Program-made: the position numbers and the translations under genes | The notes under the pieces: generated by a model | Databases searched by the model: none | Told to the model about the DNA's origin: nothing | What the model saw: only the letters and a program-made list of their open reading frames with translations | Part shown: piece by piece, positions 8,087 to 12,969 of the stretch | How positions within the stretch are numbered: position 1 is the first letter of the stretch | How the letters are laid out: every line of letters begins with the position of its first letter | DNA from: Pseudobdellovibrionaceae bacterium | Lineage (GTDB): Bacteria; Bdellovibrionota; Bdellovibrionia; Bdellovibrionales; Bdellovibrionaceae | DNA length: 34,029 nucleotides | NCBI GenBank assembly: GCA_041288045.1 | Contig: JBGGMM010000108.1 | Location: forward strand, 1-34,029 | Direction of reading: 5' to 3'

Positions 8087-9109
8087 TCAAATCTGCAATT
8101 GAGTGTGATTCAGATGCTCCCAAAGCTCGGCTTCACTATAAGCGTGAAGTTTGAGAAGTTCCTCATAGGGGTCGCCCTCAATTCCAAGGGCTTCGGCAAA
8201 AGCTGGCTCAGTTTTTAAACCTGATTTTTTCAAGTTCAAAACTTTTTTCTTTAGGTCTTTACCAAACATTTTAAGCAATCGGGCTTCGACAATCAGGTGT
8301 CGATGAGCGGATTGTTGATGAGAAGGAATTTTTTGCCAAAAAATTTCGAATGGGACTTGATCGACTTGAAAGCCAGCAATCCACGTTTCTTGTCCGAGAA
8401 CAGAAGTTTTCTGGATCTGAAAGTTTTCAAATTTGGAAAATTCGCTTTTTAAAACGTCTTCCGAGCCTTGAAAGTTTTCAGAGCTTATCAAAATATCCAC
8501 ATCCGAATTTTCAACCCCTAAACCCAATGGAAAAGTTCCTGAAACCAAAGGCGAATAAGGCTTCAGCTTTTTGAGGACTTGGGATTTTCCTAGGACATTT
8601 GCGATTTGTTGATTTTTTTCCAGCTCAATCACTTGCTCTAAAGAGTAATGATGAAATTTAACCGCGCAGTTTTGAAATTCAATTTCCAGTTCTTGGTTGA
8701 AATCTTTTTCAAGGCCGCCCAGATCCATTTTTAAGTAGGAGTATTTATTTTTCAAATCTGAAAAACTTTGACTGGTCACAACTTCGATATGCTCAAAGCC
8801 TTCCACTGTGGTTTTTCCGGGCTTTGGAGCTGGAACTTCCACGAGGTCAATGCTTCGGCCATGATACTCAATAGGTGTGTTCAGTTTGAAAGTTGAGATC
8901 ATCCGTCCTTTGACAGGGCTTTCAATGAGCAGCTGCGAAAAGTTTGTCATTTGCTGGCAGATGCTTTGATAGTGATCCAAGCTGTTGGTGCGATAACAAA
9001 GATGATCAATTTCATCATGGCCCAAATCCACTTTGTTTTCTTTCAGGATTTGAAACAACCGATCCAGGAAAGCATTTGCTTCTGCTTGAAACTGATTTTG
9101 ATCCTTCAT
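8087..9109 (-). CDS. Fusion of YecM-like VOC domain and DUF4269 (nucleotidyltransferase-like) domain
   Basis: N-half: IDHLCYRT, ES.VKGRMI, VEVPAPKPGK, GFEHIEVV, VKFHH. C-half: LVSGTFPLGL...SDVDIL, AHRHLIVEARLL, GLKTEPAFA..LGIEGDPY. The ATG at 9109 overlaps the upstream stop (ATGA). Confidence 0.85.
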   Translation of the reverse strand: MKDQNQFQAEANAFLDRLFQILKENKVDLGHDEIDHLCYRTNSLDHYQSICQQMTNFSQLLIESPVKGRMISTFKLNTPIEYHGRSIDLVEVPAPKPGKTTVEGFEHIEVVTSQSFSDLKNKYSYLKMDLGGLEKDFNQELEIEFQNCAVKFHHYSLEQVIELEKNQQIANVLGKSQVLKKLKPYSPLVSGTFPLGLGVENSDVDILISSENFQGSEDVLKSEFSKFENFQIQKTSVLGQETWIAGFQVDQVPFEIFWQKIPSHQQSAHRHLIVEARLLKMFGKDLKKKVLNLKKSGLKTEPAFAEALGIEGDPYEELLKLHAYSEAELWEHLNHTQLQI

Positions 9110-10401
9110 CGTTGATTCAGGATTTCTTGAGCTTTGCTGTAATTTTCGGGAGCGACGTAGAGGCGATCGATGATCCGGGCCGCTTCGTATTTTTGGAAGA
9201 TTTCGGTGGTTTGATCGATGGGACTGGGTTTGTCCCATTTGTCGTATTGGTCGATCACGTAAATCGGATAAGCCTTATCTTCGGGACTGGCGGCGTGATA
9301 TTTCGAAAGGCGAGCTTTCGAAGAAGCCCAAATGACGTCAATCCCTTGAGCGATCAAGCTGTCTCGCAACTTTTCTGGTCGGGTGTTTTCAGCTGTGGTG
9401 TGAAATTCAGCGAACATTTTGTAAGGCTTTTTGAGTGCCACTCGCTGAGCCCACTCATTCGGAGAGGCCGCCAAATGCTCATAAAGCCTGAAATCATTGT
9501 ACTTGGTGTACTCATCAATCGAAGCGGGGAGCTTGAAAGTGCAATCTGGAGATGTCAGATAGCGATTGAGCATCTCTTCATACACAATGCACTTGTGATG
9601 AAAATAAACCATCAAGTGAATGTGATGCCGAGAAATTAAAAAATCATCGAATGTGTAAAGAGCCCGGCGATTCAGACCAAGATAAAATTTTCCGTCCACT
9701 TGATACGGGATCAAATTGCTGATCATCCAATCACGGTCAAATTTTCCGTAATTGGTGCCCGTGTAATAAGAATCTCTCTCAAGATAATCCATGCGATCAC
9801 AATCCAGCTCACCACTGACAAGCTGTGAAAGCACAGGTCTGAAATCCAAACCCTTATCCAAGAAAAAATCATCTGGGCAGTTCAAGCTCTTATCAATCAG
9901 ACAAGCAATGTGCACAGGCTGAATATCTGAAAAGTTCTTCTTCAGAATTTCAGTCAACGGTGAATCGGTCAGGTATTTGATCGTGTAATCTTCGTGCGTA
10001 GCCCTAGCATTCGCCTTCGGCAGCGGAGTCCGATTTTTATAAACATCCACTTTCAAATCCGCTAGAGGCGGCATCACTTCTTCAGTGGTATGCGAAAGCG
10101 GGCCGTGACCCACGTCATGAAGCAAAGCTGCCAAGCGGAACACTTGGCGAAACCTTTGGCGGACAGAATGATTGGAAAAAGGAAAAACTTTGAAAAGATG
10201 ATCAAAAGTTTCCCCAGCCAAATGACAGACACCGAGCGAATGAATAAATCGGGTGTGTGTCGCTCCCGGAAAACTAATATCCGCAAATCCCAATTGTTTA
10301 ATCGCGCGAAGACGCTGAAATTCATTCGAATCCACCACCGCAGTTTCGCCGGTAGAGAGAGGAATGGTGCCATGAATGGGGTCGCGAATTTCGATTGCCA
10401 T
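9106..10401 (-). CDS. HD-domain phosphohydrolase (YwfO/SAMHD1-like dNTP triphosphohydrolase family)
   Basis: IRDPIHG, FQRLRAIKQLG, HTRFIHSLG, LLHDVGHGPLSH, DCDRMDYL.RD and VYFHH motifs. Confidence 0.92.
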   Translation of the reverse strand: MAIEIRDPIHGTIPLSTGETAVVDSNEFQRLRAIKQLGFADISFPGATHTRFIHSLGVCHLAGETFDHLFKVFPFSNHSVRQRFRQVFRLAALLHDVGHGPLSHTTEEVMPPLADLKVDVYKNRTPLPKANARATHEDYTIKYLTDSPLTEILKKNFSDIQPVHIACLIDKSLNCPDDFFLDKGLDFRPVLSQLVSGELDCDRMDYLERDSYYTGTNYGKFDRDWMISNLIPYQVDGKFYLGLNRRALYTFDDFLISRHHIHLMVYFHHKCIVYEEMLNRYLTSPDCTFKLPASIDEYTKYNDFRLYEHLAASPNEWAQRVALKKPYKMFAEFHTTAENTRPEKLRDSLIAQGIDVIWASSKARLSKYHAASPEDKAYPIYVIDQYDKWDKPSPIDQTTEIFQKYEAARIIDRLYVAPENYSKAQEILNQR

Positions 10402-10573
10402 AGGAGGCTCAGTTTTCAAGCCAATTGAATCCAGTTTCAATCTCTTTCAAGGGGTTACAGCTTCGCGTCAACCGTCTCGCTCAAGACACAGATTGTAATC
10501 GTTCAGCGGCAAAAGAAGAAATTTGAAGGCCCTTCCGGGTCAGAGTAAAATTCACTCATCACCAGGAGTTTTC

Positions 10574-11440
10574 ATGAATCTAGAGCCCTTCAATTCCACC
10601 AACTCTCATTTCCAACCCGCATCTTCTCAAGACTCAATCAATCCGATGGAAGTCTACCACCAGCTGATGCGAGATATTCTTGAAAAGGGAGCAAAGAAAG
10701 AAGATCGCACGGGAACGGGAACTTTGAGTCTTTTCGGCTATCAAATGCGCTTTGATCTGCAAAAAGGCTTTCCTTTGGTAACGACAAAAAAACTGCATTT
10801 ACGCTCCATCATTCATGAACTTTTGTGGTTTCTCAAAGGTGACACCAACATTCAGTACCTGAAAGAAAACAAAGTCGGCATTTGGGACGAGTGGGCTGAT
10901 GAAAAGGGTGATCTCGGTCCCGTTTACGGAAAACAGTGGAGAGCTTGGCAAACTCCTGATGGTCGCACCATCGATCAAATCAGCAATGTGATTGACCAGA
11001 TCAAAAAAAATCCAGATTCAAGACGGCTTCTCGTGGTGGCTTTCAACCCAGCCGATGTGGATCAAATGGCGCTTCCGCCTTGCCATGCATTTTTTCAGTT
11101 CTATGTGGCCAACGGCAAGCTCTCTTGCCAGCTCTACCAACGGAGCGCCGATGTATTTTTGGGAGTTCCCTTCAATATCGCCAGCTACGCGCTTCTCACA
11201 CACATGATTGCGCAAGAGTGCGGCCTGCAGGTCGGGGATTTCGTTCACACTTTGGGTGATGCCCATTTGTATTCGAATCACATCGAACAAGCCAAGCTGC
11301 AGCTCTAACGAGAGCACAAGCCTTTGCCACAGCTCAAACTCAATCCAAACGTGAAAAGTGTCTTCGATTTCAAATTCGAAGACATTGAAATTGTCGGTTA
11401 CGAAGCCCATCCAGCCATTAAGGCCGAAGTGGCGGTTTAA
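10574..11440 (+). pseudogene. thyA: Thymidylate synthase interrupted by an in-frame TAA at 11306-11308 (nonsense allele or sequence error)
   Basis: [51 protein letters not shown]. After the TAA the same frame continues [43 protein letters not shown] to 11440. Start 10574 has an AGGAG RBS; 10646 is the alternative. Confidence 0.9.
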
Positions 11441-11442
11441 AG

Positions 11443-11958
11443 ATGATTCTCTCTTCGATCGCCGCCATGGCAAAAAATCGAGTGATCGGTGTCGACAATG
11501 GTCTGCCTTGGGAAATTCCCGAAGACATGAAGTTCTTTCGCGACAAGACCAAAGGCCATGTGATGATCATGGGTCGAAAGACTTTTGAATCTTTTGGCGG
11601 AAAGCCTCTGCCCAATCGCTTTCATATCGTCATCACCAGGCAAGAAGACTATAGATATGAAGATCCCACCGTCGAAATCGTCCACGATCTGAAAACCGCC
11701 ATCGAACTGGCCCATATGCTCACCACTAAATATAAGACAAAGTTCGGTGATGAGGTGTTTGTGGTCGGGGGCGGGGAGATTTACAAGCAATCCATCGACA
11801 TCGTCGATCGCATTTATCTGACAGTGATTGAAAAAGACTTTCCCGGAGATGCGAAATTTCCAGAATTCAACGAGCAAGACTTTCGTCTGACACGCAACGA
11901 TCCCAGGTCCGAACCTCTGCCATATTCCTTCCGAACCTACGAGCGCTTAGAAAAGTAA
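11443..11958 (+). CDS. folA: Dihydrofolate reductase
   Basis: IAAMAKNRVIG, LPWEIPEDMKFF, IMGRKTFES, KPLPNR, VVGGGEIY and GDAKFP. Follows thyA by 2 nt. Confidence 0.97.
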   Translation: MILSSIAAMAKNRVIGVDNGLPWEIPEDMKFFRDKTKGHVMIMGRKTFESFGGKPLPNRFHIVITRQEDYRYEDPTVEIVHDLKTAIELAHMLTTKYKTKFGDEVFVVGGGEIYKQSIDIVDRIYLTVIEKDFPGDAKFPEFNEQDFRLTRNDPRSEPLPYSFRTYERLEK

Positions 11959-12008
11959 GTGCTGAACGAGCCCAAGGTCCAGATTTTCCAAAAATGAGAT
12001 CGTCTCAC

Positions 12009-12120: not shown

Positions 12121-12969
12121 ATGGGACTCAGGATTAATACGAATACGGCTTCGTTGAACTCGCAAAGGGTTCTATGGAATACGAAGCTCAACCTAGATAA
12201 GAGCTTGGAAAAGCTTTCATCTGGATACCGAATCAACCGTGCCGGTGACGATGCTGCGGGACTCGCGATCTCTGAGAATTTAAGAGCTCAGGTTCGAGGT
12301 CTCAAACAGGCTTCCCGAAACGCCAATGATGGTATCTCCCTCGTGCAAGTGGCGGAGGGTGCGATGAACGAAATGTCCTCAATCATGATACGATTGCGGG
12401 AACTAGCGGTTCAAGCAGCCTCAGACACGATCGGACCTGTTGAGAGACAGTTCTTGAACGTGGAATATGATCAGCTCGTTTCCGAGATTGATCGTATCGC
12501 TGATGCGACAGAGTTCAACGGAACTCAGTTGCTAGCCGGAGTGGGATCCATCATGGACTTCCAGGTTGGTATCCGCAACAACCCAGAGATCGACCGTATT
12601 TCGTTCGACTCGTCAAAAGCAGATGCGAACTCAGCTGCGCTTGGAGTGAATCTCACTTCGGTCGCTGACAAAGCTTCGGCTCAGAATGCACTGTCAGCGA
12701 TTGACACTGCAATCATGAGCATCTCTGCGATGCGAGCGGATTTCGGTGCTCTTCAAAACCGTCTGCAAACGACAGTTTCCAACATTCAAAATACTGTTGA
12801 GAATATGTCGGCTGCGAACTCTCGAATCCGAGATGTGGATGTGGCTGAAGAGACCTCTGAAATGACAAGAAATAATATTTTATTGCAAGCCGGTACCTCG
12901 GTACTCGCACAAGCGAACCAGTCAGCGAATGTGGCACTTGGACTCTTGAACAAGACATTCGGAGGCTAA
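12121..12969 (+). CDS. fliC: Flagellin (282 aa)
   Basis: MGLRINTN, LSSGYRINRAGDDAAGLAISE, QNRL, SRIRDVDVAEE and NILLQAGTSVLAQAN. Confidence 0.98.
   Translation: MGLRINTNTASLNSQRVLWNTKLNLDKSLEKLSSGYRINRAGDDAAGLAISENLRAQVRGLKQASRNANDGISLVQVAEGAMNEMSSIMIRLRELAVQAASDTIGPVERQFLNVEYDQLVSEIDRIADATEFNGTQLLAGVGSIMDFQVGIRNNPEIDRISFDSSKADANSAALGVNLTSVADKASAQNALSAIDTAIMSISAMRADFGALQNRLQTTVSNIQNTVENMSAANSRIRDVDVAEETSEMTRNNILLQAGTSVLAQANQSANVALGLLNKTFGG

Follow-up and report, generated by a model that had tools for sequence, protein, structure and literature searches.

The thymidylate synthase gene (thyA) of a Pseudobdellovibrionaceae bacterium raises the question of whether an apparently well-preserved enzyme can be cut short by a single codon. 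An in-frame TAA is found at positions 11306-11308, inside a frame that, upon translation of the window, is open from the ATG at 10574. The window, i.e., the whole stretch of DNA analysed (34,029 nucleotides), is an entire contig (C108) of a draft genome that comprises 249 contigs and 2.89 Mb and is 83% complete. A first-pass annotation had named three possible origins of the stop: a sequencing or assembly error, a very recent nonsense mutation that makes the cell a thymidine auxotroph, or stop codon readthrough. Below, we consider the gene itself, the version of it found in separately built contigs, its relatives, and the state of other genes in the same assembly.

The thyA gene and its surroundings

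The location of thyA, its internal stop and other features is given in Table 1. The first-pass description of the locus, an in-frame TAA with 43 intact codons behind it that end 2 nt before folA, is correct in every detail, as judged by translation and by the match of the downstream part to PF00303. When the stop is read through, the ThyA sequence scores 431.9 bits against PF00303 (cut-off 24.3) and covers profile positions 2-266, with the internal stop replacing a single profile position. Residues 25-288 of the read-through sequence pair 1:1 with the 264 residues of solved E. coli-type ThyA chains from the PDB (E value of ca. 1e-131), an alignment that puts the stop at the equivalent of residue 221. 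The profile match and the 1:1 alignment agree with the earlier identification of the downstream segment as the standard ThyA C-terminus. The translation also contains the stretch [13 protein letters not shown], whose letters are the same in the aligned solved enzyme; it includes the conserved P-C-H motif, with the cysteine presumably acting as the catalytic nucleophile.

Table 1. Coordinates of the features discussed in the text (positions of the window, unless another contig is named).
Feature	Location	Strand	Description
thyA upstream of the internal stop	10574..11305	plus	244 codons from ATG 10574; PF00303 2-222 of 266, E 5.5e-113
Internal TAA	11306..11308	plus	equivalent of residue 221 of the 264-residue enzyme
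thyA C-terminal part and natural stop	11309..11440	plus	43 codons (11309-11437) and TAA (11438-11440); PF00303 224-266, E 5.9e-10
folA (dihydrofolate reductase)	11443..11958	plus	ATG at 11443, 2 nt past the natural thyA stop; PF00186 DHFR_1, E 1.3e-54
Patch differing from the X1/X2 contigs	11287..11314		28 bases, with the stop codon inside
Replicative dnaE (DNA polymerase III alpha), in-frame TAG	G000:C78:5176-5178	minus	L055/L132; 742 codons, stop, 454 codons
Histidine kinase, 17-T run then TAA	G000:C234:523-545	minus	L128; between HisKA and HATPase_c

The open frame between 10574 and 10645 adds 24 codons upstream of a second ATG, at 10646, and the equivalent frame is closed by stop codons in three relatives. 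Since, in addition, the 264-residue enzyme of the E. coli type begins at the residue aligned with the Met encoded at 10646, the true start of thyA is probably ATG 10646.

The 43 codons downstream of the internal stop have a codon-usage score of 0.188 per codon by a measure trained on this genome; the median for 43-codon windows of long ORFs is 0.164, the N-terminal part of thyA scores 0.156, and off-frame sequence scores -0.48. By this measure, the downstream codons appear to be coding sequence without signs of decay. A TTG at 11324 is a possible start for a 38-residue peptide. According to the available portion of PMC6514825, the C-terminus of ThyA closes the active site and is required for catalysis, which agrees with the first-pass statement that the extreme C-terminal residue is needed for active-site closure; the truncated ThyA is expected to be inactive.

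The surroundings of the gene are as follows. A gene for a 444-residue HD-domain protein (PF01966) is located upstream of thyA-folA (9106-10440, minus strand), and a flagellin gene (PF00669 and PF00700) is located downstream (12121-12969, plus strand). In this soil Bdellovibrio-like bacterium, thyA and folA form an ordinary gene pair. The locus resembles that of E. coli-type ThyA (PDB 2tsc, 1aob) in the 1:1 alignment over 264 residues, in the coverage of PF00303 from position 2 to 266 and in the dihydrofolate reductase gene that directly follows; it differs in the TAA at the equivalent of residue 221, which is present in the deposited contig and is lacking in independent contigs.

The stop region in separately built contigs and in relatives

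Contigs that had been built separately from two public soil-metagenome runs of one study, referred to as X1 and X2, were compared with the window over positions 10500-12000. The two runs may include the source sample of the genome, and the comparison therefore provides an independent assembly, not independent biology. Of 31-letter words sampled from the window, a share of 0.94 is present in X1 and 0.54 in X2; by our own count, the X1 value is about that expected if only words spanning the patch described below and a 10-base gap are missing. One X1 contig (depth 4.19) covers 10500-11238 with zero differences, and another (depth 5.57) covers 11249-12000 with differences confined to 28 bases, 11287-11314. 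The X2 contig begins at 11258 and shows the same set of differences; its depth, 4.2, is in the range where a single contig may err, although the X1 contig of depth 5.57 gives the same letters. A further run, X3, contained only short pieces, 90-95% identical, of thyA from other organisms (11093-11151).

The differences between the window and the contigs are 11287 A>G, 11291 G>A, 11296 G>A, absence of T at 11306, 11308 A>C, insertion of an A after 11309 and 11314 G>T. As a result, the window reads GAA CAA GCC AAG CTG CAG CTC TAA CGA GAG where the contigs read GAG CAA ACC AAA CTG CAG CTC ACC AGA GAT. Length and frame are unchanged in the contig version, which encodes E-Q-T-K-L-Q-L-T-R-D, with Thr at the position of the stop; this local peptide is present in a natural homologue (P0017). 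Thus, the ThyA polypeptide is interrupted before its C-terminal segment in the deposited contig, and is uninterrupted, with an ACC codon at the site, in the contigs of X1 (from 11249 on) and X2 (from 11258 on). Downstream, the sense version continues into no fewer than 686 bases in which contig and window are identical, and it is, therefore, part of the population of this organism.

In both X1 and X2, the contigs have the sense codon and lack the nonsense codon; the comparison was made with contigs, not raw reads, and contigs drop rare variants. The first-pass annotation had proposed that reads with a sense codon at this site would turn the stop into an artefact. As far as a fixed stop is concerned, the ACC in the contigs of both runs speaks against it; since contigs were compared, the stop might still be a minor allele. 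The ends of the contigs, at 11238 and 11249 in X1 and at 11258 in X2, lie a short way upstream of the patch, where a branch or a spot of thin coverage would put them.

Besides the stop, the patch contains five codons that differ from the contigs. Three of the differences are synonymous (GAA/GAG, AAG/AAA and CGA/AGA), and the other two patch codons specify Ala and Glu, which relatives commonly have at the same positions. The patch of the window thus appears, from the letters themselves, to resemble natural allelic variation rather than random noise. Because the differences are synonymous or lead to common residues, DNA molecules with the patch allele are probably real, and they might truly carry the stop. 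Exact-pattern scans revealed no outside copy of either version of the patch: the 32-base stretch forming its left flank had no exact matches in the metagenome contigs, and the patch sequence, with the second letter of its stop codon left as N, had none in the metagenome contigs or the genome contigs.

We have also inspected the site in relatives and homologues. Matches to thyA were obtained in 37 of 40 related genomes, 34 of them without a stop. The three others (G008, G028 and G040) have one stop each, and fetching and translating these sequences placed every one of the stops upstream of the start Met, with the enzyme frame intact. In 19 of 19 aligned relatives, the codon at the site is a sense codon, for Ser (TCG, TCA, TCT, AGC, AGT), Thr (ACC, ACT) or Ala. 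The comparison with the closest relatives that the first-pass annotation had called for thus reveals a sense codon in every aligned relative and no stop within the enzyme in any of the 37 matched ones. The best 120 homologues from a large protein collection have T (56), S (47), Q (11), A (3), K (2) or E (1) at this position, and all 120 have exactly 43 residues C-terminal to it.

In the two closest homologues, the sequence is [17 protein letters not shown], which matches the window around the stop and has Ser at the site. Since they carry Ser and otherwise match the window, the TAA is most simply derived from a TCA codon by one C-to-A change; this is consistent with the earlier suggestion that one substitution, for example from TCA, accounts for the stop. 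The proteins nearest to this ThyA are named Bdellovibrio or Pseudobdellovibrionaceae by their sources; the closest full-length homologue is 90% identical, and the closest short ThyA fragment in the protein collection is 89% identical. A near-identical protein showing the allele with Ser was absent from the protein collection.

Pieces of ThyA that consist of 91-124 C-terminal residues (P0139, P0143, P0151, P0157, P0179 and P0180) are encoded on long contigs or complete genomes of up to 3.9 Mb, and some of them are named thymidylate synthase in Bacillus and Acinetobacter. These pieces from other bacteria could be broken thyA genes or result from miscalled starts.

Other interrupted genes, the genetic code and thymidylate supply

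The thyA stop is a single event to which no chance test applies; the control is provided by other genes that are cut likewise, of which there are at least two. The genome was scanned for same-frame ORF pairs that are split by one stop and coding-like on both sides. With a lenient threshold, this procedure yielded 230 pairs; a stricter one, which thyA passes easily, left 109. Most same-frame pairs are adjacent genes, with a start codon and a ribosome-binding site directly after the stop. A Pfam scan covered 29 of the 109 pairs, the 80 others having been set aside by a heuristic based on a ribosome-binding site plus start or on an obvious start Met, and the count of at least three interrupted genes (thyA, the replicative dnaE and a histidine kinase gene) is accordingly a lower bound.

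The replicative dnaE is interrupted by a TAG. The PF17657 domain spans this codon, and the NCBIfam equivalog NF004226 matches with 1380 bits in one stretch, 16-1086, that runs across the stop. At the corresponding site, 20 of 20 relatives are without a stop and have V, Q, I, E or A instead. Contig C157 encodes the second member of the DNA polymerase III alpha family, the error-prone DnaE2. No cell can survive on a replicative polymerase that ends at residue 742 of about 1197, and the dnaE TAG can almost certainly be put down to an error in the assembly or the sequence. In the histidine kinase gene, a run of 17 T is located at the expected conserved start of the ATPase domain and is followed by TAA; the run looks like a garbled assembly patch, a typical sequence artefact. 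Given the non-viable cut in dnaE and the 17-T artefact, the assembly contains local errors that create in-frame stops. The dnaE and kinase defects demonstrate such errors without proving that the thyA base is one of them.

Reassignment or suppression of the stop codon was considered and rejected. Among ORFs of at least 250 codons (n = 1621), TAA is the terminal stop of 736, TGA of 624 and TAG of 261, and no tRNA reading UAA was present among the 28 tRNAs detected, which form an incomplete set from an 83%-complete genome. Genome-wide recoding, which the first-pass annotation had held to be unlikely, is excluded by the number of long ORFs that end in TAA.

The genome was also searched for genes that could back up or bypass thyA, as had been suggested earlier. 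The 83%-complete genome yielded no second thyA, the sole copy being the one with an internal TAA, and no thyX, and a BLAST search of the whole genome with 11100-11500 returned only the locus itself. A thymidine kinase gene (tdk) is present and intact (PF00265, E 2.2e-52, no stops). A cell devoid of ThyA activity could, in principle, be viable on thymidine salvaged via this kinase.

Origin of the internal stop

The separately built contigs disagree with the deposited sequence at the site, the depth is low, all aligned relatives have a sense codon, and other essential genes are broken in the same assembly. We conclude that the internal TAA is likely to be an unsupported or minority variant that was fixed in a low-coverage assembly (depth of about 4-6), and not a part of the biology of the organism. 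Of the origins named in the first-pass annotation, a sequencing or assembly error is the one best supported, because the independent contigs have ACC and because further in-frame stops interrupt genes that a cell cannot do without, dnaE among them. The source of the patch is probably a co-occurring minor strain or close relative, a few reads of which bridged a spot of thin coverage; the consensus of the assembler would then follow, over 28 bases, a variant that is absent from the independent contigs. The patch allele itself would most likely encode Ser (TCA) at the site, with one wrong base, C to A, added to it, and we infer that the TAA base is a read or consensus error rather than a real rare allele. 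The predominant population would, accordingly to such a scheme, make normal full-length ThyA. In its depth of about 4-6, in the contig breaks beside the site, in the short discordant patch and in the presence of other cut genes, the case is similar to known consensus and strain-chimera errors of low-coverage metagenome-assembled genomes; it differs from them in that the patch is non-random and, apart from the stop, looks like a natural allele.

This last feature is also what would be expected if the stop were a real minor nonsense allele, carried by a sub-population in which the equivalent of Ser221 has become a stop, the enzyme is short by 44 residues, and the cell is an auxotroph that takes up prey nucleosides and uses its thymidine kinase. 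The presence of tdk and the failure to find thyX or a second thyA agree with such an allele, and a very recent origin would account for the lack of decay in the C-terminus. Loss-of-function alleles of thyA are, moreover, well known in other bacteria as a cause of thymine or thymidine dependence in natural clinical isolates, as described in the available portions of PMC9269972 and PMC8552798. If the TAA is real, it would resemble these alleles, found in clinical E. coli and in thymidine-dependent small-colony variants of S. aureus, in the loss of the C-terminus that closes the active site (PMC6514825, in the part available) and in the option of salvage via tdk. However, the known alleles come from isolates under antifolate selection, as far as the same portions of PMC9269972 and PMC8552798 go, whereas here there is only a metagenome consensus that is contradicted by contigs of the same runs. 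The version with the stop is absent from the X1 and X2 contigs, where the intact version has a depth of 4-6, so that it would be a minority at best, and no stop within the enzyme is seen in the 37 matched relatives or in the best 120 homologues. Since the same assembly also cuts the replicative dnaE, which no viable cell could tolerate, error alone is a sufficient explanation, and we regard a minor nonsense allele as improbable.

Far less probable still is a pseudogene fixed across the whole population, with thyA function lost throughout. It is true that the stop stands in the deposited consensus, that tdk is present and that the search of the 83%-complete genome for thyX gave nothing, but the sense codon occurs in the contigs of both runs, where it is contiguous with the identical sequence downstream, and the codons behind the stop are undecayed. 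That active ThyA is still made, either by readthrough (through a suppressor tRNA, a programmed event or recoding) or as a split enzyme, is hardly credible. The 43 C-terminal codons are intact and in frame, and the TTG at 11324 could start the second part of such an enzyme; against this, TAA is the commonest genuine stop of long ORFs in this genome, no UAA anticodon occurs in the incomplete set of 28 tRNAs, and no relative has a stop at the site. The other interrupted genes have differing contexts (a TAG in one case, a T-run followed by TAA in the other), which points to errors and not to a decoding rule. We know of no split ThyA. The emphasis that the first-pass annotation had placed on auxotrophy or readthrough is thus not supported, given the sense codon in the contigs of both runs.

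With an assembly artefact as the preferred reading, the draft genome is one with consensus defects at thinly covered, strain-variable spots, which include thyA, the replicative dnaE and the histidine kinase gene. In-frame stops of this assembly should therefore not be taken for pseudogenes, auxotrophies or recoding without the support of reads. A real thyA-null lineage, present at low frequency in the soil Bdellovibrio-like population and kept by Tdk-dependent salvage of thymidine from prey, is a doubtful proposition. If the stop is real, the predator would be abandoning de novo thymidylate synthesis and depending on the nucleotides of its prey, and such a lineage would represent the first step in the loss of the de novo dTMP pathway in a predator, before decay of the gene.
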